Positions 1-27,252 of a stretch of DNA of 64,000 nt are shown piece after piece (position 1 is the first letter of the stretch; each line of letters begins with the position of its first letter). The position numbers were made by a program, and so were the translations under genes. Below the pieces are notes generated by a model. It made no database searches and was not told the DNA's origin. It was given only the letters and a program-made list of their open reading frames with translations. Origin of the DNA: Kiritimatiellia bacterium (GTDB lineage Bacteria; Verrucomicrobiota; Kiritimatiellia; RFP12; UBA1067); assembly GCA_024405395.1 (NCBI GenBank), contig JAKSOW010000001.1, forward strand, positions 6,277-70,276. The letters are read 5' to 3'.

Positions 1-130
1 TCCTATAACTCTGTACCGCATCGGCAAAAAGCGCTGGATCCTGTATTTTGTCCCATGACGCATAGACGAAGATTGCGGCAATCCCAATTCGCAACACGCC
101 CTCAACAACAAGAACAAGCTTCTGCTTCAT
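1..130 (-). CDS. DoxX/MauE-like membrane protein, N-terminal fragment (gene continues past the left edge)
   Basis: The ATG at 130..128 overlaps the stop of the preceding small ORF (ATGA). My reverse-complement translation is MKQKLVLVVEGVLRIGIAAIFVYASWDKIQDPALFADAVQSYR. It is hydrophobic, and the xxLRIxxxxxFxxAxxDKIxDPxxFAxxVxxY pattern resembles DoxX-family N-termini. Confidence 0.5.
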   Translation of the reverse strand, partial: MKQKLVLVVEGVLRIGIAAIFVYASWDKIQDPALFADAVQSYR

Positions 131-318
131 GGCTCATCTCCTGTTTCGGACTCTCCGCTCTGGTGTGTTTCCGGTCCCGTCCACGGTATGCGTTGCTCTT
201 CGTAGACGCGCAGATTGTTGGCGATGCCCAAAAGCATCGCCAACACGATAATCGCAACCACAACAATCCAATTGAATCGCCACCCCCAAAAAGAAATTTC
301 CAGCCTGCTCATGCGCAT
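127..318 (-). CDS. small single-pass membrane protein (hypothetical)
   Basis: This is part of track ORF 127..375. ATGs at 318 and 312 lie just downstream of the protease stop (333). The product MRMSRLEISFWGWRFNWIVVVAIIVLAMLLGIANNL... has one clear hydrophobic helix followed by an acidic tail. Its stop overlaps the next ATG. Confidence 0.35.
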   Translation of the reverse strand: MRMSRLEISFWGWRFNWIVVVAIIVLAMLLGIANNLRVYEEQRIPWTGPETHQSGESETGDEP

Positions 319-332
319 ATTCCGGGACGACT

Positions 333-2015
333 TCACTTCACCACCACGGGCCAGGACATTGCGGGTTTCTTGCATACGGCAACACCTCGACCAACGCCAT
401 CAACAACAAGCCCATTCACCGTAAATTTGTACTTCGCAAGTTTGGTGCGGCCATTATTCGTCTCTAGTGCATAAATTGTGAAAGTGCCCTTGAATATTCC
501 CGTCTTGGCCGCGAACGAAAGCTTCACACCCGCATTGTTCTCAGCTTCTGGATCATACTGAAGCTCCATCTCCTGGGTTTCGCGATTCTTTGCGTATTTC
601 ACCTTACCGGCCTTGGGGAAGGTCCACTTGGCGCCCGCGACATCAAAGGCCGTTCCGTCTGGCGTCAGGCTAGACAACCAATCAAATCCCTCAGAAGAAG
701 ATGCGTCAACGGAAAGGATCGCCGTACCGTTTTCCAATCCTCCGACAATTGCCTTCTTGACGGAATAACCTTCCGTGTGCAAACCATCGCTTTCAAGCAC
801 ATATCCCTGTGCCGGATCATAGTCCACAACAATCGCCACATCGTTCACTGGCGCCTTGAACGAGAGCAGGCCAGAGATTCGATTCCCCTTCGGAGTGAAA
901 GACTTGGCCTTGGCGGCAACCTTCTTGCCATTGGGCAGAATGATGGATCCGGACACCTTGACTTCATTCTTCTTCTGGTTGTATTTCCCAAGCTTCAGCT
1001 GTACAATTCCCGCAACTTCATCACCCGCATCAATGAGAGCGCCCGAAACGGTCACAGCCTTGGTGTAGGCTGTCGTCACGTCAGGAATCGGCGCAGGCGT
1101 GGGATCGTCCTTGGGATCCTGCGGATCTTTGGGGTCAACCACAGGATCTTTCGGCTTAACACTCTTGCGAAACGCCGCAACAATCGCAAAATTGTCCTTG
1201 ACGGTCTTGGCGTTGTTGTGATTGGCGTCACCCATCGGCACACCCTCGAAATCAATGTCCGGATTGGAGAAATAGGGGATCGTCTGCCAAATTTCAGAGC
1301 TTCCGGGTTTTGGCGTATAGGCAAGCAATGTCGCATAGTTGCCGCTTGACGTCGACAGATAGAATGCCGAGGAATAGGCATCATGGCAGGGGCCATCTGT
1401 CCCATCACCATCTCCATATGTGGAAACATCCGCATGACCCGCCCCCAAGAGATGCCCTATCTCATGCGGGACGACATAGCCATCCTCATGGGCAGCAGCC
1501 TCAACACTTGCGATACAGTAGGCATACGTCGAATATAGACTGGGGCTGGGCCACCCCGCATCAAACTCCCAACCAATACCTGCAGCCCCAGCGGCAATCC
1601 GCGTAAGCACGCAAACCACATCAGCACCCACTTTTTCACGGTACTGATGAACCTTATCCCAGTCATACCCATCTCGGACATGACCTTTTCCTGTATTGTC
1701 GCACACCACATCCGTCAGCATCGAAACGACGTCGCCCGTACCCGAGGACGGCACCAGCAATTCGCCTACCGAACGAAAATCACCTGCAGAAGAGATTCCA
1801 GAATTCGCCATGACGCGGTTGAGCTTCTCTACCGAACTGGCCGTAAGCTCCGAAGGCGACACGCCAGCATCACTTAGCCAATCCTGAGCTGATTTGTCGT
1901 ATACAAACAATACGTCAATTGTTGCGGCCATGGTTATGCCTGTTGCCATCAGGATCCATGCCGCCATTATCATTTTCTTCATGTCTTTATCCTTTCTTTC
2001 CCTGCTTGTGATCAT
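333..2015 (-). CDS. secreted zinc metalloprotease, metzincin (reprolysin/M12B-like) with long non-catalytic C-terminal region
   Basis: The zinc-binding motif HEIGHLLGAGHAD (HExxHxxGxxHxD) lies at about nt 1434-1466. The signal-like N-terminus is MKKMIMAAWILMATGITMAA. The ATG at 1982 is preceded by AGGA; the alternative ATG at 2015 overlaps the upstream stop as ATGA. The C-terminal ~250 aa share modules with neighbouring genes. Confidence 0.85.
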   Translation of the reverse strand: MITSRERKDKDMKKMIMAAWILMATGITMAATIDVLFVYDKSAQDWLSDAGVSPSELTASSVEKLNRVMANSGISSAGDFRSVGELLVPSSGTGDVVSMLTDVVCDNTGKGHVRDGYDWDKVHQYREKVGADVVCVLTRIAAGAAGIGWEFDAGWPSPSLYSTYAYCIASVEAAAHEDGYVVPHEIGHLLGAGHADVSTYGDGDGTDGPCHDAYSSAFYLSTSSGNYATLLAYTPKPGSSEIWQTIPYFSNPDIDFEGVPMGDANHNNAKTVKDNFAIVAAFRKSVKPKDPVVDPKDPQDPKDDPTPAPIPDVTTAYTKAVTVSGALIDAGDEVAGIVQLKLGKYNQKKNEVKVSGSIILPNGKKVAAKAKSFTPKGNRISGLLSFKAPVNDVAIVVDYDPAQGYVLESDGLHTEGYSVKKAIVGGLENGTAILSVDASSSEGFDWLSSLTPDGTAFDVAGAKWTFPKAGKVKYAKNRETQEMELQYDPEAENNAGVKLSFAAKTGIFKGTFTIYALETNNGRTKLAKYKFTVNGLVVDGVGRGVAVCKKPAMSWPVVVK

Positions 2016-5000
2016 TTTGCAAACATGTTAAACGGAACCGTAGAAGTCATTCGCTTCCCATTCACTTCTGTCTTGTAGCTGAAATAGCCGCTCGCAAAAG
2101 GCCGTTCTGCAAACTCTCCTGGAAAACTCTCTGCTATACACCCGCAGTCGATCCATCCAGGCGTCAATACTCCGCTAAAGTTCCCTTTGACTTCCTCTTC
2201 TCCAAAGTTAAATGTGGCTTTCCCAGAAACCAAACCTGAAGATGAATTTATCCGGCAAATTGCATCGGGGACTTCTTGACCCATGATTGAACAAACTACG
2301 GATTTCAAATCAAAAAGTCCAAGCCACGATTCAAGGGTAGTACGCTTTGCATAATATATGCCATAGCAGTCCAAGTCGGATGTAAATGCATCAAACTCAC
2401 CCACATGCCGCCATCGTGCGGCTACTCCTCTCACTGGACGAACAACCCGAGCAGTGGTCTCGTCTGCATAGTACTTTTCTCCGTTAGCATGAATTCGCAA
2501 TAAAGCCGAAAGAGAATCTCTCCTTTCCGCATGCAGAATCGGCAAGATTGCGTATTCCGAATCCTCTGGATCAATTGCCAACATTGATTTCGCGCTAAAT
2601 CTCGTACCTGAAGGAAGCGACCCCTTCAACCTAACAGTGCCAGTCTTCGAAACCGAAATCATTGCATATCCGGAACCTGTGAAATTACCGCCTGACACAT
2701 TTTCCACTCCAAATGCCATCGTGTAGTAACCAGCAAACGACCTCAGCTCTCCCATTGCCGAAGATCCAGAGGCACCACCAAACTCAACGCTCAAAACACC
2801 ACTGGCAGATAAGATCAACTTGAGGCTATGTTTGGGGGAAATGAGTTGCGCCGACGCCTCTCCTGAATCAGTATTCATGTATGACCAATAACCACTGAAG
2901 AACTTTGCTTGACTCGATAATTCAACAACCTTGGCCGAAAGTTTACCCGATTTGCTTTGTTTTAGGGTTACCATTCCCACCACATCCGAAGTTCCGTCAC
3001 CTGATGCCTTCACAAGAGGCACCGTCCACAAGCCGCCAACGCCAACAAATTGATTAAACTCACGTGGATCCATGATAGTTACCGTAACCGCCACAACGCC
3101 CGAAGGAATATTGGCATTGCCAATCTTTCTCGTCACCTCATACGAGAAATCAAATATTCCCTTTTTCTTTGCCTGGCCACGCAAACACACGGCTCCCGTC
3201 TGCTCATCAACGTAAAGCCTAAGCCCATTTGGCAATTGCCCCGATTTCTTCTTTACCGTAACCCGAGAGCAACCGTCAACCTCAACAGTTTCTAAAATGC
3301 ACTTCGTTTGGAATCCAACGTACGCGGAGGCCTCCTCATTACCGCTCCCTGGGACAAATTCACAGCTCACCTCCGCTGCATAACAAGAGGAGCCTCCCGC
3401 CACACGAGCAGGCATAGTTCCAGTCAATTTCAATACCGGTCGTAGTGATTGTGCATGTGATTTTCTAACTGCAAATTCCAGGGAATTAGTTCCACAGGCC
3501 ACCACAACTCCGTCTAAGACCAGAGATATCATCACGTCATGCGTGGAAGACACCGACACCGAGAAACTACCTGTTGAGAATCCCCGCAGAATAAACGCTT
3601 CAGCAGCATCACAGATTTGGAAATCAACTTGGGCTCGTCCCCCCGCTACCGACAGCTCCCGTCTAGTTGTGGAGACATAATCAGAAGACTCATCAGCACG
3701 ATTAGCCAATTTCAGAAGATCATCAAGCCGGGCGATGTTTTCCTCTGGATCATAGTAGCGAACATCAGAACCTATTTCACCATTACGGTCTCGCCATGTT
3801 GAGCAACGACCAACAACACGTCCCTTTCCGTCAATCAACAACAGCGTTGGTGTGCTGAGACGAGTCGCAGATGTTTCTGGTGCCTTCCACTCAGAAACTG
3901 AATTTCTGACACTTCGTTCGTGGGCGGCTAACACCAAAGGATCATCAGCATGCAACCCATGGCGAGACAAATATGCAGCACCACTAACCATCTTTCTTTC
4001 ATTCCCTGTATGGATGTGCTCCAAACCCGCGGCATAGGAAAGAAGATGCCCTGCATCTGCGTAAGTGTCGCTCTCTGAGAATGCCTGATCAAACAACACC
4101 AACTGTACCCGATTGTCCTCAAGCCAATCTCGGAATAGATCCGACGCAAAAAGTGATTGTTCCATCCCTTTACAATAGGGACACCATAAGACTCCTGAAT
4201 AAATCGCCAGGATTGCTTTAGCTTTACCCTCGACGACCTTACGACACGCAAGATCATAATCAAGTGTCCAATCCGAATACCTCAACTCCTCTATTGTGCT
4301 TTCCCCCACAAAATATGGATTTGTTGGCGAATTCACCTGGGCATCAACGCAATGCACAAATGAAGAAGAGACCACATCCCCCTTAGAGTCAATAAGAGAC
4401 AGCTCTATGCTCTTTCCTGTGGGAAACTCACATCCCAGAAACTTTTCAAGCGAGAGCGATACGATGGCATTCGTCTGTCCCATTGCCCAATGAATCGCAT
4501 TTGTAACTGGGGGCAGAACATTTCCAGGCCATGCAGCAACCAACAGATTATCGTCGGCAACACCTGGAAGACGCTTCAACGGAATATCAACAAACGACGT
4601 ATTCGACTCTATCTCAAGGCGATCACCCTCTCCGTCTGAGCATTGGAAACCAGCAACTGTACGATTTGTGGTGTAGGACCCGCAGAGTTTCTGAATGCTC
4701 TGTTCCAATTCTATCGCCAACAATTCCAACATTTCTGGATCATGCTCCGCAAGCGCGGAAAGAGACATCGCGGGGTCACGCGGCACAAGCATGCGTCCAG
4801 ATCTTCCAACAAAGCTCTCAGCCAAAGTCTCAACCCCATTCTTTGGCCACCATACACAGATGAACGGGAAACTGGTGAGCCAATTTCCTACAGATTTCGT
4901 GAATCCGGCACTACGAGCGAAATCACAGGCGCCCGTCCCCTCATTTACTTCAATATCCGCGCCAGAGGTACCTTGCACATAACAATAGACATAATCTGAA

Positions 5001-5269
5001 TGCTTCGTTTGCCAAGTGCGAAACGACTCGAGATTGACTGCCGTCTCAAGCTTTTCACACTCGCCACAAGAGGAATTAGCCCAAAACAACACCAGTGGAG
5101 CCTTAAGACTCTGTGCCAGGTTGGTAGCCGCGGTGAACGACTCAAGCCAAACGCCAGTCCTAGTTTCGTTCGAAACCTGGACTGGCGAATCAGCCTGCGC
5201 ATCCAGCGCCACCAAGGCGACAGTCACTGACAGTATCAGCGTGCCGATTCTTGAATGCAATACCGTCAA
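2012..5269 (-). CDS. large exported protein with two thioredoxin-like CxxC domains and an Ig-like segment
   Basis: The track ORF runs to 5419, but its first ~50 codons overlap the upstream gene and show no signal peptide. TTG starts at 5269 or 5260 give ...HSRIGTLILSVTVALVALDAQA, a signal peptide. The CxxC contexts are LVLFWANSSCGECEKLE and LAIYSGVLWCPYCKGMEQ. An Ig-like GQLPNGLRLYVDEQTGAV segment is present. The start codon is uncertain. Confidence 0.8.
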   Translation of the reverse strand: MTVLHSRIGTLILSVTVALVALDAQADSPVQVSNETRTGVWLESFTAATNLAQSLKAPLVLFWANSSCGECEKLETAVNLESFRTWQTKHSDYVYCYVQGTSGADIEVNEGTGACDFARSAGFTKSVGNWLTSFPFICVWWPKNGVETLAESFVGRSGRMLVPRDPAMSLSALAEHDPEMLELLAIELEQSIQKLCGSYTTNRTVAGFQCSDGEGDRLEIESNTSFVDIPLKRLPGVADDNLLVAAWPGNVLPPVTNAIHWAMGQTNAIVSLSLEKFLGCEFPTGKSIELSLIDSKGDVVSSSFVHCVDAQVNSPTNPYFVGESTIEELRYSDWTLDYDLACRKVVEGKAKAILAIYSGVLWCPYCKGMEQSLFASDLFRDWLEDNRVQLVLFDQAFSESDTYADAGHLLSYAAGLEHIHTGNERKMVSGAAYLSRHGLHADDPLVLAAHERSVRNSVSEWKAPETSATRLSTPTLLLIDGKGRVVGRCSTWRDRNGEIGSDVRYYDPEENIARLDDLLKLANRADESSDYVSTTRRELSVAGGRAQVDFQICDAAEAFILRGFSTGSFSVSVSSTHDVMISLVLDGVVVACGTNSLEFAVRKSHAQSLRPVLKLTGTMPARVAGGSSCYAAEVSCEFVPGSGNEEASAYVGFQTKCILETVEVDGCSRVTVKKKSGQLPNGLRLYVDEQTGAVCLRGQAKKKGIFDFSYEVTRKIGNANIPSGVVAVTVTIMDPREFNQFVGVGGLWTVPLVKASGDGTSDVVGMVTLKQSKSGKLSAKVVELSSQAKFFSGYWSYMNTDSGEASAQLISPKHSLKLILSASGVLSVEFGGASGSSAMGELRSFAGYYTMAFGVENVSGGNFTGSGYAMISVSKTGTVRLKGSLPSGTRFSAKSMLAIDPEDSEYAILPILHAERRDSLSALLRIHANGEKYYADETTARVVRPVRGVAARWRHVGEFDAFTSDLDCYGIYYAKRTTLESWLGLFDLKSVVCSIMGQEVPDAICRINSSSGLVSGKATFNFGEEEVKGNFSGVLTPGWIDCGCIAESFPGEFAERPFASGYFSYKTEVNGKRMTSTVPFNMFAK

Positions 5270-6048: not shown

Positions 6049-6078
6049 TGTCTTACATCCTTTTTCAATTTTACTAGC

Positions 6079-6612
6079 TTAATCAATGGAGAACTCGGAT
6101 GTCCCAAGTTTGCTGGAGGAAGCTGTACCATACCCCTCGCTGCCGTCAAACGTACCACTGATTTTGACCGTGTACTTTTTGAGCTTCATCTTGGTGACAC
6201 CCTTCTTGGTTTCATATTCCTGCACACCATAGACCTTGAAGGATCCCTTGACTGTTCCCTTCTTGCGGTTGTAGGAAAGCTTAAGACCGGCATAATTAGA
6301 GCTTTTGTCCGAATCCTTGAGCACCAACTCGTAATCCCCATCAACCTTTTTCACTTTGACAGAAAGGGCCTTATCGGTTTTCAACTTCTTGCCTGTGAAA
6401 TAGACAGGCTCGCCATCCGGGAAAAGATCAGACTGAATTTCGATTTCATCATCCGAAATATCAAATCCATCATCCAGTGTGAATGTGAATTCGGAATCCT
6501 CATAACTCTCATCATCTTTGTCCTTATTTTTGGCAAAAGCCGAAGAGATCGGCGCAAGCACCAATCCTAACGCCAAAACACCAATTGCTGTCTTTACCCA
6601 TTTCCTGTTCAT
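6079..6612 (-). CDS. small exported protein, unknown function (shares C-terminal module with the metalloprotease)
   Basis: An AGGAG sits 7 nt upstream of the ATG. The signal peptide is MNRKWVKTAIGVLALGLVLAPISSAFA, followed by an acidic stretch. Its GLKLSYNRKKGTVKGSFKVYGVQ...KMKLKKYTVKISGTFDGSEGYG aligns with GVKLSFAAKTGIFKGTFTIYAL...TKLAKYKFTVNGLVVDGVGRG of the 333..2015 product. Confidence 0.75.
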   Translation of the reverse strand: MNRKWVKTAIGVLALGLVLAPISSAFAKNKDKDDESYEDSEFTFTLDDGFDISDDEIEIQSDLFPDGEPVYFTGKKLKTDKALSVKVKKVDGDYELVLKDSDKSSNYAGLKLSYNRKKGTVKGSFKVYGVQEYETKKGVTKMKLKKYTVKISGTFDGSEGYGTASSSKLGTSEFSID

Positions 6613-6639
6613 GATCAGTTCTCCTTTTTTTGTAAGAAA

Positions 6640-7719
6640 TCAATCTTCAGCCCTTTTGGCTTCTACCACCAATTGAAACTCGCGAACTACCTTGGTTGCC
6701 GCCACATCTCTCCCTTCAGCGGTCACGGTAATATTATAACATCCTTTTCGCCAAAGTGTACCAGAAAAAACACCTTCTTCTGAATCCAGCGAAAGTCCGA
6801 ATGGCATACCCTCTGCGCTGAATTTCATCGGCCGCGTTGCCTCTTCAACTTCTAACCGGAACTTGAATTTCTTCCCTACCTTCGCAATGATCGGTTGTTC
6901 TGGAACCGAAAATACCGGCGGCCTACAAGCAGATACATTCCTGAAATTGGCTGTATAGGTTCCCTCAGTCATACCAGAGTCAATGACTAGCTTACGAGCA
7001 TAACCTACACACCTTCCATTAGGATCCATCCATCCCCAAAACACGCTACCAGAATCATCGGCAATTGCCGTGATTACAACTGTACCACGTTCATCCGCAA
7101 GCTCCCCAGAGACTGGATCCATCTCAATTTTTCCACTCCCTCCTGTTTGAGTGAATTTGAAATACTTTGAGTCAGGACTATGCAATATCTCTTTGGGATT
7201 GGATAATTTTGCCGTATAATCAATCAAAATCTTGTCCAGAGCGGAAATCAATTCCATCTGAAGAAATTTATGTCGAATTCCAGGCATCGTTCCACGACGA
7301 CCAGAGAAAGTCCTTTTTACCTCTGTCCCGTCTTCTTTCTTCCAATATACGCAAACTATCGGTATACCAGTTACCTCCTTGAACCCCTCTCGTTGAAAAG
7401 CTTCTGTTTGCTTGAACTGAGGATTCTTGTCATTTATATGTACCATAAAAATCTTACGGTCATCTTGCCACATCTTGAAATCCGTACTATTCATGGATTT
7501 GTTCAAGCGATAACAGAAACTACATTCAGTTCCAGCACTGATAACTAGAATCGGCTTATGAGCTGATTTCGCAACCGCTAGTGCATTAGTGAAATTATCG
7601 CTCCATACACCTGGCGTAACTTCATGTACGATAGGTATTTTGGCGCTTACTTCATCCCGTCCATGACACAAGGCTGTTACTAATAAAAAAATGAATACCA
7701 CGAGCTTACTCATCTTCAT
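6640..7719 (-). CDS. exported thioredoxin-fold (CxxC) + Ig-like domain protein
   Basis: The ATG at 7719 overlaps the upstream TAA (TAATG). The signal peptide is MKMSKLVVFIFLLVTALCHG. The CxxC context is ILVISAGTECSFCYRLNKSM. IPIVCVYWKKEDGTEVKRTFSGRRGTMP is conserved in the paralogs. The Ig-like segment is AEGMPFGLSLDSEEGVFSGTL. Confidence 0.8.
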   Translation of the reverse strand: MKMSKLVVFIFLLVTALCHGRDEVSAKIPIVHEVTPGVWSDNFTNALAVAKSAHKPILVISAGTECSFCYRLNKSMNSTDFKMWQDDRKIFMVHINDKNPQFKQTEAFQREGFKEVTGIPIVCVYWKKEDGTEVKRTFSGRRGTMPGIRHKFLQMELISALDKILIDYTAKLSNPKEILHSPDSKYFKFTQTGGSGKIEMDPVSGELADERGTVVITAIADDSGSVFWGWMDPNGRCVGYARKLVIDSGMTEGTYTANFRNVSACRPPVFSVPEQPIIAKVGKKFKFRLEVEEATRPMKFSAEGMPFGLSLDSEEGVFSGTLWRKGCYNITVTAEGRDVAATKVVREFQLVVEAKRAED

Positions 7720-9551: not shown

Positions 9552-9553
9552 GA

Positions 9554-10195
9554 TTATTCGTCATCCTCTTCTTCTTGATTTTCCTCAAGCCATTTCTGAG
9601 CGGTGGCAACATTTTTCCAATCATCACCCGTCACGTATTCATAAGCTTCTTTCGCCGCCGCACGCGCAACACCATTACTGCTGGCAATAAGATGAACGAT
9701 GATATCAATAGACAAAGTAGGACGCAGATCGTTCAGTTGAAATGAAATTGATTCCATAACTTCACGATCACGAACCAACATCATGGTCTCCTCAATGAGT
9801 ACACCCTTTTCATGTTCATCCTCAATATCATTAATTGCCGAATCCCATTGATCCTGTGCCTCTGATCTAACGTCTTCATCGCGGTCAAGCAAAAACGGCA
9901 TCAACGCCCGTACAGATTTTTTTCCAAACCAGCCAATGGATTCAACACAACGCAAGCGAACTACTGCATTTTTCGAATTCTTGAGCTTTTCTACATAAGA
10001 CAATGCCTCCTGAAAATCTTCCTTCTCTACAGCATTCTCAAGATCAGAAACCTGCTTCTCTTCGCTAACCGTACATTCTGATGTCTCTACAACATTCTTT
10101 TGCATTTCCTTATCGGGTTCAGACTTGCCGCAACCGCTAAGTAGACAAACAACAACAGCAATACCGACTATATTCTTCATTTCTATCACCTTCAT
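9554..10195 (-). CDS. HEAT/PBS-lyase-like repeat lipoprotein
   Basis: The ATG at 10195 overlaps the upstream TGA (ATGA). The N-terminus MKVIEMKNIVGIAVVVCLLSGCGK contains the lipobox LSGC. VRLRCVESIGWFGKKSVRALMPFLLDRDEDVRSEAQDQW is HEAT-like. The tail is acidic. It is a paralog of 11688..12614. Confidence 0.75.
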   Translation of the reverse strand: MKVIEMKNIVGIAVVVCLLSGCGKSEPDKEMQKNVVETSECTVSEEKQVSDLENAVEKEDFQEALSYVEKLKNSKNAVVRLRCVESIGWFGKKSVRALMPFLLDRDEDVRSEAQDQWDSAINDIEDEHEKGVLIEETMMLVRDREVMESISFQLNDLRPTLSIDIIVHLIASSNGVARAAAKEAYEYVTGDDWKNVATAQKWLEENQEEEDDE

Positions 10196-11685
10196 GGCAA
10201 TGAGGCCAGAACTGTAACGTTGCCTTGACCCTGAATTTTTATTGTTCCTGTGATTTTGCCAGAATTCAAATCCAGACTTAACAAACCGATGACCACATTT
10301 TTCCCAGATTTCCTGAAAACAGGCAACCAGGTCGTTACGCAATCGGTACTCTCAACCAACACACTCTTGGTATTGATGCGAAGTCTATTTGGAAACGTTC
10401 CCTTTATTGAAACTACACCTGTCTTCGCTGCCGCCTTCTTCATTACCAACTGTAGTTCTGTTTCATTTTCAAGGATAATCTTACGGTCCATAACATAAAG
10501 ACTCGCAGGAGACTTTGCTGTCCAAAGTGTATGAGAGAAACAAATTCTACGCGACACACCATCTGTAGATATGAAATTTCCTATCAGCTGCCCTTCGGAT
10601 GTAACAGCTAACAAAAATGAACATCCCACTCCCGTTCCTGAAATTTCCAATATACCATCCGATGACAAACTTTTCCACCCTTTAGAAACCGCCTTCAACT
10701 TGTTATCGACACCATCATACTGGATTTTTGCCTGTCCTTTCTCCGAGAGTGTTAAGGATATTATTCCTTGCATCTCGCCATCCTCTGACAATATAAATCC
10801 ACTTGTCTTCACCGACTTTGTGATCGTGAAGGCAGAACAGACTTTAGAAACTGGAACCACAGTAATCGTTAGGGTAAATGTCTGACTGCCCTTCTCTATT
10901 CCTACATCGCGTTTTTCAGCCAGAATCCAAGAACTGGTAAACGTACCTGCTTTAGTTGGATTTCCTTTAAACAAAACCCGTTTAGAGACAGAATCATAGG
11001 ATACCTTTATTCCCGAAGGGAGTCTTCCAGAAGCCTTCTTTACCTGCACCATCCCACCTACCGTATTGGTTACTTGAAAGTATTCCTCAAAAGGAATATG
11101 CTGAACTGACTCAACAGTTGCATTCCGAAGCGCAAACGCCGGCATTGGCTGATCCATAGGTGCCGATGGTCTAGGAGAATCTAAAGTAGAGGAAAATGCA
11201 AAGCCCGAATCAACCAAAACCTTCTCAACTGAACTAGTCAACTGCAACGCTAGGGGCCCAAGTTTCACCGGCATGTATCCATCGCGACCAACAAAAGCTC
11301 TCTCAATTATCGTTCCATCTGTTTTTGGCCAATAGATGCAAAACAACGGCAACTCATTAATCCACGGATTAATAGATCGTATGAATTTAAGTCCTGCTTT
11401 TGCATCTGAATCGCCATCATGACATACGCTCATTATTATGCGGTGGTCATAAAGCCATTCCTGAAAATCAGCACTATCTAGTGCTGACTTCATCTGATTG
11501 CACATTGGACATGAGCTACGTGCCCACAATAACAACATAGGAGTGCATGTCTCGTTAGCATAGCTAAGACCCTTGGAAAACCCCGCATTCCACTCACCTA
11601 AACATATCTCTCCCCTAGAAAAAGAAAAAGCCCATACACTGAAAACTAGAATGATATTAAAAGACAGTACCAAAATTTTTTTCAT
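10192..11685 (-). CDS. exported thioredoxin-fold (CxxC) + Ig-like domain protein
   Basis: The signal peptide is MKKILVLSFNIILVFSVWAFS. The CxxC context is MLLLWARSSCPMCNQMKSAL. ELPLFCIYWPKTDGTIIERAFVGRDGYMP is conserved with the paralogs. The Ig-like segment is GRLPSGIKVSYDSVSKRVLFKGNPTKAGTF. The start lies 2 nt after the upstream TAG. Confidence 0.8.
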   Translation of the reverse strand: MKKILVLSFNIILVFSVWAFSFSRGEICLGEWNAGFSKGLSYANETCTPMLLLWARSSCPMCNQMKSALDSADFQEWLYDHRIIMSVCHDGDSDAKAGLKFIRSINPWINELPLFCIYWPKTDGTIIERAFVGRDGYMPVKLGPLALQLTSSVEKVLVDSGFAFSSTLDSPRPSAPMDQPMPAFALRNATVESVQHIPFEEYFQVTNTVGGMVQVKKASGRLPSGIKVSYDSVSKRVLFKGNPTKAGTFTSSWILAEKRDVGIEKGSQTFTLTITVVPVSKVCSAFTITKSVKTSGFILSEDGEMQGIISLTLSEKGQAKIQYDGVDNKLKAVSKGWKSLSSDGILEISGTGVGCSFLLAVTSEGQLIGNFISTDGVSRRICFSHTLWTAKSPASLYVMDRKIILENETELQLVMKKAAAKTGVVSIKGTFPNRLRINTKSVLVESTDCVTTWLPVFRKSGKNVVIGLLSLDLNSGKITGTIKIQGQGNVTVLASLP

Positions 11686-11687
11686 TG

Positions 11688-12614
11688 CTACTCTCCTTCA
11701 GAATTTTGCCCTTCTTCTTTTGAAATCGTTTTATCAAAATTTTTTCTCTCTGGTATATCGTACTCTGTGTCGTTTATGATTTTCATACCAGAAATATCTA
11801 TTTCTGGGTCAAATACCTCTGGGTGAAGAGATGCTCGATAGACTGGTATGTCATCAGATTCTTCTGACAAATCAATGTTCTCATTGACCCAGGCTTGTGC
11901 AGCCTCAAACGTCGTATACTCCTCCCCTGTTAGAAAAGAATAAGACTCAAGTGCTACATCCACAACATCTGGATTCTCACTATTAATCAAGGCTACCACT
12001 GACTCAATCGCCGTAAAAGTTGATAGTTCATTCAAATTAAAAGCGATATCTTCCAACATATCACGGTCTTTAATCACACCCATTGTAGCTTCAATAATTG
12101 TAGCCTTAACACGCTCATCTTCGACTTGACCTAAAGCAGATAACCAAAGATCTTGTGCAGCATCACGAACATTTTCATCCTGATCAACAAGAAAAGGCGT
12201 CAACTCAGGAAGGGCTTCCTCATTAAACCAACCAAGTGCCTCAATGGCTCTAAGGCGAACAATCTCATTTGTGGAATTTCCCATTAGTTTTGCAAGTTCT
12301 TGAACTGTAGTGAAATCCTCGGCATTAAGAGCTTTATCAACTTCATCAAACAACCGTCGATCCTGTGGCGAAACCTCATCAGGAATTTGAGATCGATCAA
12401 CTTTTCGTTTTTCCCGCCTTAATGTATTAACTTTAATGCTCGTATCCCTTATCTCAACTAGTTGCTTAACATTTGCCGGTTTGCGCCTTGATATACGCAT
12501 TCCAGTTCCAGATCTATTAGTTTGCCCCTCAGTCTCTTTATTGGTTGAAATATTGAAAATGAAAATGGCTATCGTGAATAAAATTACTGAAACTAAAAAA
12601 ATCTTAATTTTCAT
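11688..12614 (-). CDS. HEAT/PBS-lyase-like repeat protein with N-terminal membrane anchor
   Basis: The ATG at 12614 lies 1 nt after the upstream TAA. The N-terminus is MKIKIFLVSVILFTIAIFIFNIS. VRLRAIEALGWFNEEALPELTPFLVDQDENVRDAAQDLW aligns closely with the 9554 gene product. The tail is acidic. Confidence 0.75.
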   Translation of the reverse strand: MKIKIFLVSVILFTIAIFIFNISTNKETEGQTNRSGTGMRISRRKPANVKQLVEIRDTSIKVNTLRREKRKVDRSQIPDEVSPQDRRLFDEVDKALNAEDFTTVQELAKLMGNSTNEIVRLRAIEALGWFNEEALPELTPFLVDQDENVRDAAQDLWLSALGQVEDERVKATIIEATMGVIKDRDMLEDIAFNLNELSTFTAIESVVALINSENPDVVDVALESYSFLTGEEYTTFEAAQAWVNENIDLSEESDDIPVYRASLHPEVFDPEIDISGMKIINDTEYDIPERKNFDKTISKEEGQNSEGE

Positions 12615-12615
12615 T

Positions 12616-13692
12616 TTACTTCTTCCTTTTACGCGTTGGGAAAACGATACCTTCTCCATAAGGATATTTGATAATCGCTTTCTTACGCAAATCGCGAATA
12701 GTATTCCCGATAACCTCTTCCTGTCGTTCCTTAATCAATTCACGTTTTATGAATTCAGGATCCTCGTCAAATATTATGGCTGTTCGCCAAACAATGCGGG
12801 CAAGATGGCGAGCAAATACTGTTCCATCACCATTCACATCTTCTTTATCGCCCAAAAATTTTACTATCTCTATCCCATCATCGGTTGTCATAACATCTGT
12901 AATCTCACCAGGCTTTAAACATACTATGCTCTCCCAATAAACTGGGGCTTCCATTGAGAAGTCATCAGCCGTGCAAAAACCCAAGTCACCTCCTGGATTT
13001 TTTTCTTCATCCTGTGAAAAATCATCAGCCAGCTCAGAGAAATCTGCACCAGCCCTTGCCCTTGCCAAAACGTTAGTTGCTTCTGCATAAATGTGAATAT
13101 TTGTCTGCACCATACGCGCATTGTATGCAATCGTTTGCGCCACTTGATTTGAAATTGCTTCGGCAGATACCAGCATTTGAGTTGCCAATGCCGTCTTAAT
13201 GTAGTGCTGGCTCCATAAATCCAGCTCTAGCATCTCTTCAATCACATGACAATTAACACCTTTATCAAAGGAACAAAGTTGTTTGAAAGACATTCCTTTT
13301 TTACCATAGCTTAACGCATATTTTTCCTGAAGCTTCAACCTTTCTTCTTTTGTTGGCACAAAATTCATCCGTTTTGCTTCACTTGCCAACAATGCCATCG
13401 GAAAAAAGTTTTGATATTCTTTCTCCCGAAACCGCGTCTTTAGCATTTGAAACTTATGATCTGCTATAGTACCGACTTTCGCTTTGGCAAAACTCAATTT
13501 TGCCATAATTTGACCCTCATATTGTCCCTTGGTCAACTTTATACCATTGACTTCTACAAGCACCGAGTCAGAGTTGAGGCTACTATATGTTTCTCTCGTG
13601 CCTTTCGCACCATAAACATTGTTTATCCCGAAAGTAAGAAACAACAAAACTATACGAACAATTTTAAATGGAGTATAAGTTTTCATTTCCAC
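12616..13692 (-). CDS. exported SurA-N/parvulin-type peptidyl-prolyl cis-trans isomerase
   Basis: The N-terminus is signal-like (IVRIVLLFLTFGINNVYG). The PpiC/parvulin signature region is GGDLGFCTADDF...LKPGEITDVMTTDDGIEIVKFLG. The preceding helical region resembles the SurA/PrsA N-terminal chaperone part. Confidence 0.8.
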   Translation of the reverse strand: MEMKTYTPFKIVRIVLLFLTFGINNVYGAKGTRETYSSLNSDSVLVEVNGIKLTKGQYEGQIMAKLSFAKAKVGTIADHKFQMLKTRFREKEYQNFFPMALLASEAKRMNFVPTKEERLKLQEKYALSYGKKGMSFKQLCSFDKGVNCHVIEEMLELDLWSQHYIKTALATQMLVSAEAISNQVAQTIAYNARMVQTNIHIYAEATNVLARARAGADFSELADDFSQDEEKNPGGDLGFCTADDFSMEAPVYWESIVCLKPGEITDVMTTDDGIEIVKFLGDKEDVNGDGTVFARHLARIVWRTAIIFDEDPEFIKRELIKERQEEVIGNTIRDLRKKAIIKYPYGEGIVFPTRKRKK

Positions 13693-13705
13693 TGCTATCT
13701 CAAAT

Positions 13706-13744
13706 GTAAAAAGCGGGAGGAAGCACTTTCATGCATCCACCCGC
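13706..13744 (-). terminator. candidate rho-independent terminator after the 13779 gene
   Basis: On the minus strand, GCGGGTGGA pairs with TCCTCCCGC (one T:T mismatch) and is followed by TTTTT. A second perfect hairpin, TTATTCGCC-GAAG-GGCGAATAA, lies at 13757..13778 directly after the stop. Confidence 0.45.
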
Positions 13745-13778
13745 CTTGTCTCAATTATTCGCCCTTCGGCGAATAACC

Positions 13779-14657
13779 TTACTTAGCATACGCAGGCATA
13801 TAGGCAGCAACACCCTTAGTACCATTGGCAATCTTCTTGCTGTACTTCAGCTTCCACGTACCATACGCAGCAAGCAGTTCAGAACCAGCAGATTCGGTAA
13901 GATCGTCACAAACCGCACCGAAATCATCGCAGATACCAACAAGACCAGCCCAGTGATAGTCACACTCACGAATGGTAGGATCACCCGTCACCGAACCGGC
14001 AACACTACCAGAAACGTTCTTGACAACACCCTTCTTGACATCAAACGAACCAAGACCAGCGAGCTTAAGGTCGTAATCACTGAAATCAGCCGTTTCAGCA
14101 TTAAAACCACCTGCCCCATCCGAGACATTACGCCAAGCATAGTCAATCCAACCCATGTCACCATTCTCATCCTTGGCGTACACCTGCTCCTTACCAGCGA
14201 AGTCCCAGACCATGGAAACCTTGTTGGCCTTCTTCTCGTAACGATAAACCTCATCGCCAACAGCCGACTTGAAGTCATTAGCCTTGTATTTCTCAACAGT
14301 CTTACCGCCTTCGACAACAGTCTCCGTAGTGAGGTAATCACCAATCACGTGCTGGAAGCCCTTATCGGTACGCCAAATCACGTACTGGGCACCATCAAAA
14401 TCGCAAGCCGACTTGCAGTTCCAAATGATACCCTTCAGCGTACGCTTACCATTCTTGTAGTAGGAGACACACGTTTTCGTCTCACCCAAGCACGCACTAC
14501 CACCCTTGCACTTAAGGGTCTTGGGAGCGAGCGTCTTAAGCTTGATCGTAAGATCATAAGCCTGACAATCCGAACTCGGATCAATCGTGCAGAGGTCACC
14601 TGCAAAAACACCAATACCAGCAGCTGCAACAGCGGCAGCAATCATCAACTTCTTCAT
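13779..14657 (-). CDS. exported Cys-rich protein, unknown family (paralog of 5266..6048)
   Basis: The best start is the ATG at 14657 (MKKLMIAAAVAAAGIGVFAG, a signal peptide), preceded by an A-rich/GGA region. It shares motifs with the 5266 gene (see that entry). The overlapping plus-strand ORF 13731..14732 is judged an antisense artefact. Confidence 0.75.
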   Translation of the reverse strand: MKKLMIAAAVAAAGIGVFAGDLCTIDPSSDCQAYDLTIKLKTLAPKTLKCKGGSACLGETKTCVSYYKNGKRTLKGIIWNCKSACDFDGAQYVIWRTDKGFQHVIGDYLTTETVVEGGKTVEKYKANDFKSAVGDEVYRYEKKANKVSMVWDFAGKEQVYAKDENGDMGWIDYAWRNVSDGAGGFNAETADFSDYDLKLAGLGSFDVKKGVVKNVSGSVAGSVTGDPTIRECDYHWAGLVGICDDFGAVCDDLTESAGSELLAAYGTWKLKYSKKIANGTKGVAAYMPAYAK

Positions 14658-14899
14658 TTTTTTTCCTTTTTTAACCGGGTAGAATCCCGTGCCTTTACGA
14701 CGGTCGATCGTTTCCCAGATGAAAACCGCTGAGATATTCGGCCGGGCCACACTAGTATACCCGTACTTTTTTACAGGAGCTACCCTGATCTCTCACGCTT
14801 CGGGGCTGCATTCAGTAGCCCAGCACGTAACAATCTTTCGACCATTACTCCTAGGGTACTGGACTAATCCAGCCACCCTTCCACGGGAGAAACGCGCAT

Positions 14900-14928
14900 A
14901 TCATATCAAAAGTCGTTTTGCCTTGCAA
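14900..14928 (-). promoter_or_regulatory. candidate sigma70-type promoter (TTGCAA-17 nt-TATGAT) for the 13779 gene
   Basis: On the minus strand, TTGCAA is at 14928..14923 and TATGAT at 14905..14900, with a 17-nt spacer. This implies a 5' leader of about 235 nt before the ATG at 14657. Confidence 0.4.
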
Positions 14929-15046
14929 GTGGGAAATCAATTTTTTTTTCATTTTCTTTGTCACAACGCCACCAGGTGGATTTGCCTTGTAAGACTATTT
15001 AATGAGCGCACCATACACAATGCAAATGCAAAACTCTCTTGTTCAT

Positions 15047-15076
15047 AAACAGAACAGCTCGTCGGTTGACGAGCTG
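15047..15076 (-). terminator. candidate rho-independent terminator downstream of the bS22-like ORF
   Basis: A perfect 9-bp stem, CAGCTCGTC/GACGAGCTG (15055..15076), has a 4-nt loop and is followed on the minus strand by TTCTGTTT. It lies exactly at the high-GC/low-GC boundary. Confidence 0.5.
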
Positions 15077-15119
15077 CTTGTTGATTGATGCCTTGAAGCA
15101 TCTTATCCTATAATAAGGA

Positions 15120-15209
15120 TTACTTGTTTTTGTGGCGCTGCGCCTTCATGCGCTTGTCGTATTTGTGCTTCGACATTTTTTTCCGCCGTTTTTTCTTGAT
15201 CGAACCCAT
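15120..15209 (-). CDS. 29-aa highly basic micro-protein resembling ribosomal protein bS22 (AURKAIP1/COX24-like)
   Basis: It is below the ORF-track threshold. My translation is MGSIKKKRRKKMSKHKYDKRMKAQRHKNK. AGGAGA sits 6 nt upstream of the ATG. The MGS[IV]xKKRRxxMxKxKH pattern matches my recollection of bS22-type proteins. Confidence 0.6.
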   Translation of the reverse strand: MGSIKKKRRKKMSKHKYDKRMKAQRHKNK

Positions 15210-15279
15210 TTTGTTCTCCTTGGTTGAGGGTTTAAAGCAACTGAGGCCCCTTAGCCCAGATGCCTATTGGCCCGTTGCT

Positions 15280-18375: not shown

Positions 18376-18479
18376 GGTATCTCCTACTAAAGGGCACCCT
18401 TTGGCCCGATATTTTGGACAAGAGGCATTCCAGAAGCGTTTTTCTTCCAGAATGCCCTTTATTTCAGCGAATATTACTA

Positions 18480-27221: not shown

Positions 27222-27252
27222 TTAAGCATCGTCAACCGCAAGGAGGAAAGAA

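Follow-up and report, generated by a model that had tools for sequence, protein, structure and literature searches.

A conserved low-GC cluster of exported-protein genes in Kiritimatiellae as a possible upstream half of a cell-surface assembly locus

The window, a 64,000-nucleotide stretch of a Kiritimatiellia bacterium contig, carries within positions 1-15,100 a block of 13 genes (A to M), all on the minus strand, as the initial annotation had stated (Table 1). That annotation had also described the genes as translationally coupled. With the best starts, the junctions from A to M measure +86, +1, +2, +11, +8, -1, +27, +30, +5, -4, ~+14, and -4 nt; about half overlap or are separated by 1-2 nt, but the others have gaps of 5-86 nt. 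From gene spacing, we infer that the block may be read as one transcript. All 13 products are predicted either to start with a hydrophobic stretch that serves as signal or anchor or to have several transmembrane (TM) segments, in agreement with the proposal that only exported or membrane proteins are encoded. The proposed identities (a metzincin, three Trx/Ig proteins, two HEAT proteins, a Wzy_C protein, a parvulin, a Cys-rich pair, and a DoxX protein) were borne out by Pfam, BLASTP, and motif analyses, the Trx-like folds as candidates with scores below the cut-off. A, H, I, most of D and J, and a shared C-terminal domain (CTD) gave no match in Pfam, NCBIfam, or PDB sequence searches.

The block is cut by the left end of the window, and gene M is thus incomplete there. 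The independent contig L001 matches the window with 0 mismatches in 13,360 nt, and past the left end it continues with the remainder of the MauE/DoxX gene (GC3 0.50) and then a sugar-transferase gene (GC3 0.59). On the other side, hisG sits between the cluster and the gene of an HTH_3/zinc-ribbon protein, a possible regulator of the cluster. This gene has a lower GC3 (0.58) than the genes around it, and an ortholog with 44.6% identity lies directly upstream of the cluster in three other loci (L006, L007, and L035). A sigma-70-like site at 14,928-14,900 in the upstream region of the cluster is weak and not above chance.

Table 1. Features of the block and its upstream flank (window coordinates)
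Feature	Description	Position	Strand	Evidence
Gene A	Secreted Cys-rich protein, 292 aa, 10 Cys; first cluster gene	13779..14657	-	Paralog of I
Gene B	SurA/PrsA-like parvulin peptidyl-prolyl isomerase, N-terminal signal/anchor	12616..13692	-	Rotamase_3
Gene C	HEAT-repeat protein, N-terminal TM anchor	11688..12614	-	HEAT_2 9.8e-10, above cut-off
Gene D	Exported thioredoxin-like protein (CPMC), Ig-like and beta-rich C-terminal parts	10192..11685	-	Paralogy to G, J
Gene E	HEAT-repeat lipoprotein, lipobox LSGC	9554..10180	-	HEAT_2 3.2e-5, below cut-off
Gene F	Wzy_C/WaaL-like polytopic membrane enzyme, 608 aa	7719..9545	-	Wzy_C match
Gene G	Exported thioredoxin-like protein (CSFC), He_PIG Ig domain	6640..7719	-	He_PIG 8.9e-8
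Gene H	Small secreted protein, CTD alone	6079..6612	-	Match to K
Gene I	Secreted Cys-rich protein, predicted 8-stranded beta-barrel, 260 aa	5266..6048	-	Model
Gene J	Large exported protein, two Trx-like CxxC domains (CGEC, CPYC), Ig-like region, beta-rich C terminus	2012..5260	-	
Gene K	Secreted reprolysin-type metzincin, Pro/Lys/Asp-rich linker, CTD	333..1982	-	Reprolysin_3, HEIGHLLGAGH
Gene L	63-aa single-pass membrane protein	127..318	-	TM-like segment, residues 14-32
Gene M (5' part only)	Polytopic membrane protein of the MauE/DoxX family; 146 aa when complete	1..130	-	MauE
Upstream non-coding region	Upstream region of cluster, composition boundary	14658..15078	-	Hairpin and GC step (200-nt windows)
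Regulator	HTH_3 and zinc-ribbon regulator	16248..16829	-	HTH_3 1.7e-11, DZR 3e-3

The motif of gene K fits the metzincin pattern HExxHxxGxxH, and the family HMMs score above their cut-offs (Reprolysin_3, 26.1 vs. 22.4; Reprolysin_4, 22.3 vs. 22); NCBI names the product zinc-dependent metalloprotease. The last 120 residues of K constitute the CTD (E = 1.4e-48), to which protein H is related through its residues 61-172, aligned with K residues 438-544 (35% identity, E = 2e-10). An HMM of the CTD (A3) matched only the extreme C termini of proteins from such loci, which include the metzincin, a Peptidase_C10 protease, Trx proteins, and unknown proteins.

The N terminus of A resembles a signal peptide (MKKLMIAAAVAAAGIGVFAG). 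A and I match each other by BLASTP (E = 7e-8), and A can be aligned with the I family, for which Pfam has no model and which comprises 334 clusters at 50% identity. The cluster begins with a gene of this A/I family and then the parvulin gene in at least 10 loci. Across 176 family members, the Cys residues equivalent to I residues 69, 71, 186, 189, 208, and 211 are 82-100% conserved; the loop C189-C208 is rich in indels, aromatic residues are conserved at Y23, Y54, W67, W92, W227, and Y231, and long members carry extra helical tails rich in Ala/Glu/Lys. Both proteins were modelled, with fair model quality, as beta-barrels of eight strands in which disulfides bracket a variable loop. A signal peptide followed by a predicted 8-stranded antiparallel barrel is an OmpA-like arrangement, and four of the eight modelled strands are 17-19 residues long, as is typical of OmpA/OmpX-type barrels. 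By sequence family or terminal beta-signal, A and I do not classify as OmpA-like: Pfam and NCBIfam (OmpA_membrane, OMP_b-brl, and the like) gave no match, a PDB profile search found nothing below E = 0.1, and the C-terminal end of the barrel model is helical, with no aromatic-terminated strand that could serve as a beta-signal.

When the barrel model was compared with known structures, soluble barrels scored nearly as well as outer-membrane ones. A and I might be soluble periplasmic or secreted ligand-binding barrels (lipocalin, avidin, hemophore, or Slam-type) of a nutrient-capture or surface-binding system, with the glycan genes as mere neighbours. We consider this improbable, given the OmpA/OmpX-like strand lengths, the SurA-like chaperone gene adjoining A, and the lack of ligand-transport genes (TonB receptor, ABC importer) in the cluster. 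The alternating strands also bear highly conserved charged residues (K30, R55, E120, and K230) that would lie on polar faces, like the interiors of small outer-membrane barrels. OmpA-like outer-membrane barrels are our preferred reading of A and I.

Gene B matches Rotamase_3 (1.4e-12) and Rotamase (4.3e-10) above the cut-off and SurA_N_3 (2.5e-4) below it; its NCBIfam matches to PPIase/PrsA/SurA models are all far under the cut-offs. C and E are paralogs (37% identical, E = 3e-39); C has a TM-like segment at residues 20-38, and E is a 208-aa protein in the L001 gene call (MKNIVGIAVVVCLLSGC). D has no Pfam or NCBIfam match, and its Trx assignment comes from paralogy alone (BLASTP: D-G, 2e-26; D-J, 6e-16), with the CxxC at residue 59. 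In G, He_PIG scores above and Thioredoxin_7 (7.4e-5) below the cut-off, and the CxxC lies at position 77 of the 370-aa ORF translation, the annotated start of which is 11 codons later. J, read from a TTG start at 5260, begins with a signal peptide (HSRIGTLILSVTVALVALDAQA) and matches Thioredoxin_2 and Thioredoxin_7 at two places just under the cut-off; J-like genes are found in most related loci. The Thioredoxin_7/Thioredoxin_2 scores amount to 23-26 bits vs. a cut-off of 27, and the CxxC is intact in all four domains. Judged from these motifs, the Trx domains are plausible candidates for oxidising, reducing, or isomerising roles.

The 43-aa fragment of M matches MauE (1.1e-4, 23 bits vs. a cut-off of 27), and the full protein from L001 matches both PF07291 and PF07681 and has a CGCFG motif, which places it in the MauE/DoxX family. 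The start of M overlaps the stop of L as ATGA; orthologs of L precede MauE in L017 and L023, and this pairing with MauE/DoxX is constant among close relatives. An ortholog of M in L021 is 43% identical, the MauE/DoxX gene of L017 adjoins polyprenyl synthase, UbiE, UbiA, and ETF-QO genes, and a groundwater contig contains a Wzy_C-rhodanese-MauE/DoxX trio. Within the cluster, MauE/DoxX is confined to the window genome and its closest relatives (L017 and L023), and a dedicated redox relay is therefore not universal to the cluster. The thiol-redox and folding component proposed in the initial annotation is plausible in view of the four intact CxxC motifs, the MauE/DoxX protein, the parvulin, and the putative Cys-rich clients.

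Gene F matches Pfam Wzy_C (PF04932; E = 4.4e-13), scoring 49.7 bits where the cut-off is 31.7, and the domain is present in 15 of 15 homologs. It is less than 30% identical to any named protein, and NCBI calls it an 'O-antigen ligase family protein'; a literature search found no paper combining 'Kiritimatiellae' and 'O-antigen ligase'. Among 15 sequences with 25-58% identity, R223 (in SRG), R288, and H335 never vary; they were equated with WaaL R215/R288/H337 by motif position, without superposition. F would thus possess the conserved periplasmic Arg and catalytic His of the WaaL superfamily. Wzy_C enzymes depend on a conserved His (PMC9829042), and F combines the Wzy_C domain with this essential His, as do O-linking oligosaccharyltransferases (OTases). 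The closest structure to the model of F is WaaL (7tpj), which points to a WaaL-like membrane fold. The model consists of one N-terminal TM helix, a periplasmic beta domain, ~7 TM helices, and a 160-residue C-terminal alpha/beta domain, and with ~8 TM helices and 608 aa it departs from the 12-TM, ~400-residue architecture of WaaL.

The initial annotation had suggested that the gene set be sought in other genomes. It recurs in more than 25 loci of uncultured, mostly ruminant-gut Kiritimatiellae, and comprises Cys-rich A/I proteins, SurA/PrsA-like parvulins, CxxC thioredoxin-Ig proteins, HEAT proteins, Wzy_C proteins, and CTD-bearing proteases; all genomes compared are uncultured. The same families lie on one strand in a similar order in L005, L006, L009-L014, L016, L017, and L019. 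Among 18 further metagenome contigs (≥5 kb), F was found in at least 12, Trx proteins in at least 13, HEAT proteins in at least 12, CTD proteins in at least 13, and a phosphoglycosyl transferase in at least 7, these counts being lower bounds since the contigs are truncated. In most loci, A/I-family genes, which do not encode pilins, are 0-3 genes from F. Directly downstream of the block, here and in at least 14 other loci (L008-L010, L012-L014, L026, L031, and L043-L047 among them), lies a gene for Bac_transf, a polyprenyl-phosphate sugar-phosphate transferase; in L017 it lies ~8 kb downstream of the cluster. In L010 and L019 there follow ABC2_membrane (Wzm) and ABC_tran/Wzt_C genes, glycosyltransferases, LicD, and EpsG, and sugar-nucleotide genes are also among the neighbours of F homologs. 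An envelope system without a described counterpart had been suspected; this idea stood, several products having no library match, except that the block is not free-standing but the upstream part of a surface-glycan locus.

These surroundings would also suit an ordinary LPS/O-antigen locus, in which F is the organism's WaaL and the other genes are envelope housekeeping without a dedicated link to the glycan, a reading that we regard as unlikely but deserving of weight. The Wzy_C domain, the NCBI name, WaaL as the top structural match, and the Arg/Arg/His-type residues of F agree with it, as do the genes adjoining F and its homologs in syntenic loci (Bac_transf, Wzm, Wzt with Wzt_C, glycosyltransferases, and sugar-nucleotide genes), which resemble the WaaL and ABC-dependent O-polysaccharide pathway (WbaP/WecA-type, Wzm/Wzt). 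Low GC is typical of O-antigen clusters, and in L020, F, Bac_transf, and sugar genes are present on the 16.5 kb available, where relatives of A/I, Trx, and HEAT were not detected. However, the A/I family and the CTD are restricted to this locus type among all sequence searched, and even where identity falls to ~25-30%, the accessory genes are still arranged in the same order and on the same strand with F and the transferase. D/G/J, C/E, and A/I are paralogs, and duplication within the cluster is unexpected of housekeeping Dsb/SurA genes. F also differs from WaaL in its predicted number of TM helices and its two extra domains, and unlike in described O-antigen clusters it is set among conserved barrel, Trx-Ig, HEAT, parvulin, and protease genes.

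The composition of the block is strongly atypical. GC per kb is 0.39-0.53 over 1-15,000 vs. 0.58-0.68 over 28-64 kb, and in 200-nt steps it rises from 0.42 at 15,001-15,200 to 0.555-0.595 at 15,201-15,800. GC3 is 0.30-0.60 in the block genes and 0.76-0.85 in hisG, dnaN, the Na/H exchanger, and the giant genes; GC1 and GC2 are nearly equal between block and flanking genes. Against 28-64 kb, the tetranucleotide usage of the four 4-kb bins to 16 kb correlates at -0.24 to 0.33 and that of the remaining bins at 0.80-0.97, save for 24-28 kb (0.35). These measures agree on the low GC of 1-15,100 and its sharp edge near 15,050-15,100, as noted initially. The terminator hairpin reported at this edge exists as an 11-bp stem at 15,053-15,078, 3' of hisG, but terminator-like sites are not enriched in the boundary region (3 found vs. 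3.5 expected).

Horizontal acquisition had been raised as an explanation, and the block does have the atypical composition of a genomic island. However, there is no tRNA in the 64-kb window and no integrase or transposase at the 15.1-kb boundary, where the flanking genes are hisG, HTH, rlmL, dnaN, and dnaA; the left border of the block is outside the window. The order dnaA-dnaN-rlmL-HTH-cluster is shared with L006, a distant relative (I ortholog 37% identical) whose site is occupied rather than empty. Since this order is repeated in an unrelated assembly, the junction is biologically expected. In L017, which is the orthologous locus closest to this one (I 80% identical), GC3 is 0.58-0.83, near that of its own flanking genes; at identical amino acids, GC3 is 0.37-0.56 in the window copy vs. 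0.58-0.85 in L017, the former using A/T-ending codons. The very low GC is specific to the window genome's copy, a pattern in line with the locus having been replaced by an allele from a relative. Foreign DNA or a mis-assembly of two organisms, which would make the composition uninformative on the host, is in our judgement very improbable in the face of the L006 gene order, the mobility-gene result, and the L017 composition, even with the GC3 contrast and the near-zero tetranucleotide correlation in its favour; L001, which covers low-GC DNA only, ends inside gene B, so the 15.1-kb boundary is not crossed by it. Allelic replacement from a relative, or A+T drift specific to this copy, fits better than insertion of a new island, and the codon pattern is as expected of an allele that may have come from, or evolved in, a lower-GC Kiritimatiellae lineage.

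Our leading interpretation, to which we give an even chance of being right, is that a conserved cell-surface assembly locus, found mostly in ruminant-gut Kiritimatiellae, has the block as its promoter-proximal half. On this reading, the locus is a variable surface locus, and its low GC would stem from a divergent allele rather than from a new insertion. A and I would be the structural cargo, most likely OmpA-like outer-membrane barrels displaying a variable loop between CxxC...CxxC, and B would escort them through the periplasm as a chaperone. The CxxC proteins would form or shuffle the disulfides of A and I and pass electrons to MauE/DoxX and on to the membrane quinone pool, in a MauD/MauE-like manner. 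The adjacent transferase would start an undecaprenyl-PP-linked glycan, which in relatives would be exported by Wzm/Wzt. In the periplasm, F would ligate this glycan to lipid A-core, as WaaL does, or to the barrel proteins, as an O-oligosaccharyltransferase does; O-antigen ligation to lipid A-core would be the simplest role for a WaaL-like enzyme beside Wzm/Wzt genes. Docking of the protease there would fall to the shared CTD, which in relatives would do likewise for the Trx enzymes.

Several described systems resemble parts of this scheme. O-linking OTases (PglL, PglS-ComP, and TfpO/TfpM-pilin) share the Wzy_C domain and essential His with F (PMC9829042) and likewise have a candidate secreted acceptor encoded in the same cluster. 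The sequons of PglS and TfpM are written between two Cys (PMC9829042), to which the variable Thr/Ala/Glu-rich loop between the CxxC motifs of A and I is comparable. In contrast to the pilins, the candidate acceptors here would be beta-barrels. Type IX secretion cargo, anchored on A-LPS in Bacteroidota, also has a CTD; here, a ~115-residue beta-rich domain occurs at the extreme C termini of unrelated exported enzymes encoded beside a WaaL-like ligase and glycan genes. Unlike the Type IX CTD, the locus CTD has no Pfam, NCBIfam, or PDB sequence match and also occurs free-standing, and neither the window nor the related loci showed any gene for a T9SS component.

MauD and MauE act in the maturation of the Cys-rich small subunit of methylamine dehydrogenase. 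The cluster is similar to this pair and to DsbA/DsbB in combining a MauE-family protein with exported CxxC Trx-fold proteins and Cys-rich exported clients, and in L017 the MauE-family gene adjoins quinone-biosynthesis genes. It differs in lacking mau genes and a TTQ enzyme, in fusing the Trx domains to Ig-like/beta-rich domains in three paralogs, and in having MauE/DoxX in the closest relatives only. The chlamydial outer membrane complex (MOMP, OmcA, and OmcB), as described in two sources (PMC549562, PMC6812762), is a disulfide-cross-linked Cys-rich coat, likewise from the PVC superphylum and with Cys-rich envelope proteins that include a beta-barrel and owe their structural role to disulfides. 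A and I have no sequence or fold-level homology to MOMP/Omc proteins and are predicted to be 8-stranded rather than porin-sized; disulfide cross-linking of an A/I coat is pure conjecture.

In summary, the cluster is conserved but uncharacterised. As the set is conserved in many Kiritimatiellae metagenome contigs, it is a feature of the lineage and not a one-off, and it is best read as an assembly line for a surface glycoconjugate and protein coat with dedicated oxidative folding.

The low-GC block at the left end of the window carries 13 genes, designated A to M from its 5′ end, and all of them lie on the minus strand, as the initial annotation had described. Neighboring genes overlap by up to 4 nt or are separated by as much as 86 nt. 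Overlaps or 1–2-nt gaps, as proposed for the block, make up about half of the junctions, and the others are wider. Every product has a signal-peptide-like or anchor N-terminal segment or is polytopic, which bears out the proposal that only exported or membrane proteins are encoded; the lipobox of E reads LSGC, and J acquires a good signal peptide if TTG at 5260 is taken as its start. The family assignments of that annotation were also right, based on family HMM matches and BLASTP paralogy. The block is cut by the window edge, and an independent contig (L001), identical over 13,360 nt, extends beyond it. This continuation contains the rest of the MauE/DoxX gene (M) and then codes for the first 269 residues of a polytopic protein; in related loci, the orthologs of this protein are sugar transferases of the WbaP type.

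To survey conservation, the ORFs of all loci retrieved were compared with the window proteins. The gene set recurs in other genomes as a conserved cluster, down to about 25–30% protein identity, and its recurrent families are all encoded on one strand. In at least 10 loci, the 5′ end of the cluster consists of a gene of the A/I family (the Cys-rich barrels) followed by a parvulin gene. Further recurrent members are thioredoxin-Ig (Trx-Ig) proteins resembling D, G, and J, HEAT proteins, the Wzy_C protein, a second barrel gene, and a protease or other protein with an H-like domain at its end; the pairing of a HEAT gene with a Bac_transf phosphoglycosyl transferase gene after it is very frequent. 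Metagenome contigs of 5 kb or more numbered 18, and the majority were incomplete; among them, Wzy_C proteins were found in at least 12, Trx proteins in at least 13, HEAT proteins in at least 12, proteins with the C-terminal domain common to H and K (CTD) in at least 13, and the transferase in at least 7. L017, the nearest orthologous locus (I 80% identical), is without J and K between I and L, and its D ortholog (4401–5883) is split into two overlapping ORFs, 4401–5741 and 5482–5883; the gene may be a frameshifted pseudogene, or the assembly may be wrong here.

The search with protein I returned 37 relatives at 90% clustering, none of which was named or had a Pfam domain (0/37 for each). A profile search with the A/I family against 1.84 billion representatives yielded 334 clusters at E ≤ 0.001, of which 178 reached E ≤ 1e-10. 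When one genome was taken for each of 185,579 species, the family was present in nine, titled Kiritimatiellae/Kiritimatiellia (4), "uncultured Verrucomicrobia bacterium" (3), and "uncultured bacterium" RUG isolates (2); the carriers with a host given came from goat or yak gut.

The longer contigs also revealed what follows the block. Downstream genes encode an ABC-2 permease, an ABC ATPase, and a GT8/GT2 fusion in L010; LicD, EpsG, GT2, Wzm, Wzt with a Wzt_C domain, and a giant methyltransferase-glycosyltransferase in L019; and sugar-nucleotide enzymes in L020. These glycan genes indicate a surface-glycan locus of which the block forms the upstream half. The earlier view of a candidate envelope system was correct as to the envelope proteins, but the system continues into glycan genes that are invisible from the window alone. 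The cluster is probably a dedicated envelope and glycan assembly unit. The same glycan genes would be expected of a plain LPS O-antigen locus with unrelated neighbors, and we regard this as a distinctly less probable explanation, because the accessory genes were found in no other type of locus among the sequences searched, keep a conserved order, and are duplicated within the cluster.

The structure of I was modeled with AF2 from a 26-sequence alignment (pLDDT 76.7, pTM 0.75). The model is an 8-stranded up-and-down beta-barrel, in which four strands are 17–19 residues long, and it terminates in short C-terminal helices; a 49-residue low-confidence loop (172–220) bears C186xxC189 and C208xxC211. 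The cysteines C69, C71, C186, C189, C208, and C211 are conserved at 82–100% across 176 family members, and the C189–C208 stretch is indel-rich in the family. Longer members carry extra Ala/Glu/Lys-rich helical tails, no Pfam domain was found in these extensions, and no distant family member has an informative name. In a Foldseek search of the PDB, the top match was OmpA and no match was significant. A and I are most likely small outer-membrane-anchored barrels that expose a disulfide-held variable loop. The model also matches soluble barrels (kievitone hydratase, 9.0; avidins, ~6.5), and strand-face conservation and hydrophobicity are ambiguous between a membrane and a soluble barrel. Soluble ligand-binding barrels seem unlikely to us.

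H and K share a C-terminal domain of about 115 residues. In at least 20 loci, the HMM of this CTD matches proteins of the locus, always at their very C-terminal end, and it has no other match in the window; its carriers include metzincins, Trx proteins, a Peptidase_C10 protease (in L010), and proteins of no known kind. This distribution is the one expected of a docking or sorting domain, which the CTD may accordingly represent. No relatives of it were found in Pfam, NCBIfam, or the PDB, and the NCBIfam search showed no sortase- or exosortase-type sorting families. Homology between the CTD (H-like) and the A/I barrel was considered and rejected (profile-profile probability 0.1%). K is a reprolysin-type metzincin with the motif HEIGHLLGAGH.

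The paralogs D, G, and J contain the CxxC motifs CPMC (D), CSFC (G), and CGEC and CPYC (J). Their Trx HMM scores are borderline, and G has a He_PIG domain above the cut-off. C and E are HEAT_2 paralogs, one TM-anchored and the other a lipoprotein, and the parvulin B weakly resembles the SurA N-domain. NCBIfam gave only PPIase and DsbH matches, far below threshold. PDB sequence searches with the A/I profile, D, F, J, K, and the CTD profile returned nothing meaningful, only chance nanobody-type matches. M, of the MauE/DoxX family, is preceded by a 63-aa membrane protein (L), and only in the closest relatives, L017 and L023, does this pair form part of the cluster; there it abuts genes for polyprenyl synthase, UbiE, UbiA, and ETF/ETF-QO. 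MauD and MauE are needed for maturation of the Cys-rich methylamine dehydrogenase subunit. Our literature search found no paper joining MauE, DoxX, and disulfide.

In the Wzy_C protein F, SRG(222–224), R288, and H335 are invariant among aligned homologs; Wzy_C enzymes require a conserved His (PMC9829042). From the topology of WaaL, the catalytic loop and N-terminal domain of F are predicted to be periplasmic and its C-terminal domain cytoplasmic. The Wzy_C domain is common to WaaL and all known O-oligosaccharyltransferases (O-OTases), the TfpM gene is adjoined by pilin acceptor genes, and the sequons used for PglS and TfpM are written between two Cys (PMC9829042); these features suggest an O-OTase variant. 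The Cys-flanked sequons resemble the A/I loop, which is CxxC-bracketed and Thr/Ala/Glu-rich, and we conjecture by analogy that F could act as an O-OTase on this loop. A groundwater contig (L021, 6754–9057) encodes a shorter Wzy_C protein (29% identical to F), immediately after it a rhodanese, and then a MauE/DoxX protein (43% identical to M), which hints at a wider Wzy_C–MauE/DoxX link outside Kiritimatiellae.

The composition of the block differs sharply from the rest of the window in GC content, codon usage, and tetranucleotides. GC per kb is 0.39–0.53 in the block versus 0.58–0.68 beyond 28 kb, and the abrupt change reported at ~15,050–15,100 was reproduced in 200-nt windows, where GC rises from 0.42 (15,001–15,200) to 0.555 (15,201–15,400). 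Almost all of the contrast lies in third codon positions: GC3 is 0.30–0.60 for the 12 block genes complete in the window and 0.76–0.85 for hisG, dnaN, the Na/H exchanger, and the giant genes, whereas GC1 and GC2 are similar. The tetranucleotide correlation with 28–64 kb is −0.24 to 0.33 for the four 4-kb bins up to 16 kb and 0.80–0.97 for the remaining bins, with the exception of the 24–28 kb bin (0.35), which includes an AT-rich, ORF-poor stretch. The boundary hairpin is present 3′ of hisG (11 bp; 15,053–15,078), but terminator-like and promoter-like sites in this region occur at chance level, without enrichment. The plus-strand GC skew is about −0.2 throughout 1–15000 versus ~0 to +0.1 elsewhere, a strong G-over-C excess on the coding strand that exceeds what the orientation of replication would produce by itself.

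The block's right-hand neighbors are hisG, an HTH_3/zinc-ribbon regulator, rlmL, dnaN, dnaA, the Na/H exchanger, and mnmG, which places the cluster close to the replication-origin region, with its genes pointing away from dnaA. The initial annotation had suggested possible horizontal acquisition, and a foreign island or chimeric assembly would fit the strongly atypical composition. However, the order dnaA-dnaN-rlmL-(one gene)-HTH-cluster recurs in L006, where the I ortholog is only 37% identical, and there are no tRNA or tmRNA genes in the window and no integrase at the block boundary. Furthermore, GC3 in the nearest orthologous locus, L017, is 0.58–0.83, close to its own flanks, and at identical amino acids the window copy prefers A/T-ending codons (GC3 0.37–0.56 vs 0.58–0.85). 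We consider an island or chimera very improbable. The atypical composition is better read as a property of this allele, as in exchanged O-antigen clusters, than as the mark of a new insertion. The GC-poor state persists past the window edge on L001 (GC3 0.50 for the rest of MauE/DoxX and 0.59 for the sugar-transferase-like gene).

The HTH_3 regulator (16248–16829, minus strand) has a C-terminal Cys-rich zinc-ribbon part and a GC3 of 0.58, below that of its neighbors. In L006, L007, and L035 its ortholog (44.6% identical) immediately precedes the cluster; in the window, hisG (GC3 0.76) stands between the two. The stretch at 25.85–27.2 kb is ORF-poor (GC 0.44), the cumulative GC skew turns near there, and it is a candidate oriC; DnaA boxes of the E. 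coli type are not enriched (7 found vs 7.2 expected). No Rfam families were found in window 1–30 kb. The 455-aa ORF overlaps a longer antisense ORF (27232–28968) that looks spurious.

Features outside the block; the replication-origin neighborhood spans 17113–27232
Feature	Position	Strand	Remarks
rlmL	17113–18528		Replication-origin neighborhood
dnaN	18480–19574		Replication-origin neighborhood
dnaA	19861–21297		Replication-origin neighborhood
Na/H exchanger-EIIA fusion	21436–23775		Replication-origin neighborhood
mnmG/gidA	23876–25843		Replication-origin neighborhood
455-aa ORF	27253–28620	+	Signal-peptide-like start; transition zone beside AT-rich stretch
Giant ORF, 3509 aa	37854–48383	+	High-GC DNA
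Giant ORF, 2015 aa	49537–55584	+	High-GC DNA; ABC1/APH kinase-like match near residue 1500
1257-aa protein	58449–62222	+	GH20 beta-hexosaminidase catalytic domain in C-terminal third; long N-terminal region without match

The analysis shows the gene content, the folds, the motifs that are conserved, and a linkage to glycan genes that is kept across loci; from these a working mechanism can be proposed. A and I would be the cargo, as outer-membrane-anchored barrels with a variable disulfide-held loop, and B would escort them. The CxxC proteins would make or rearrange the A/I disulfides and be re-oxidized via MauE/DoxX and the quinone pool, as in MauD/MauE maturation. The adjacent transferase and its partners would make an Und-PP-linked glycan, which F would pass on to lipid A-core or to the barrels, and the CTD would gather the protease and, in relatives, redox enzymes at the same place. 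We give an even chance to this overall picture of surface glycoconjugate and protein-coat assembly with dedicated folding helpers, and consider it rather unlikely that the barrels are the glycan acceptor. A more ambitious reading, which we think improbable, joins these elements: in rumen Kiritimatiellae, A and I would form a disulfide-locked outer-membrane coat, comparable to the chlamydial outer membrane complex but in free-living bacteria; the Trx-Ig and MauE/DoxX relay would be dedicated to A/I, locking and possibly cross-linking the barrels; F would be the O-OTase that loads the locus-encoded polysaccharide onto the disulfide-bracketed A/I loop; and the CTD would dock proteases and redox enzymes on the coat. 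If so, the "O-antigen" would be borne by protein instead of, or besides, lipid A.

The claim of an undescribed system stands in part. No library searched contains the conserved gene combination, the A/I barrel family, or the CTD, but the enzymology is already known in kind (WaaL or O-OTase, Dsb/Mau-type redox, parvulin, metzincin). The literature search found no paper joining "Kiritimatiellae" and "O-antigen ligase" and nothing on such a system in Kiritimatiellota.

Kiritimatiellae are abundant, and almost uncultured, in ruminant and equine gut communities, and to our knowledge their envelope is essentially unstudied. One origin-adjacent locus here contains two families without a Pfam or NCBIfam model, the A/I barrels and the putative C-terminal docking domain. 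Here a WaaL-like enzyme is linked at the gene level to particular secreted proteins, which come with chaperone and disulfide-forming functions of their own, and this link can be tested. The extreme shift in GC seen in a single allele records that a surface-antigen locus has been exchanged or has drifted rapidly. If the barrels are acceptors, protein O-glycosylation by Wzy_C enzymes would extend beyond pilins and into the PVC superphylum, and glycoengineering would gain new pairs of OTase and sequon. Should F be no more than a WaaL, the genes of the cluster would remain candidates for major surface antigens and envelope-biogenesis factors. Nothing in the data forces a surprising mechanism; nevertheless, the locus is a solid, testable lead for the envelope biology of an uncultured gut phylum.
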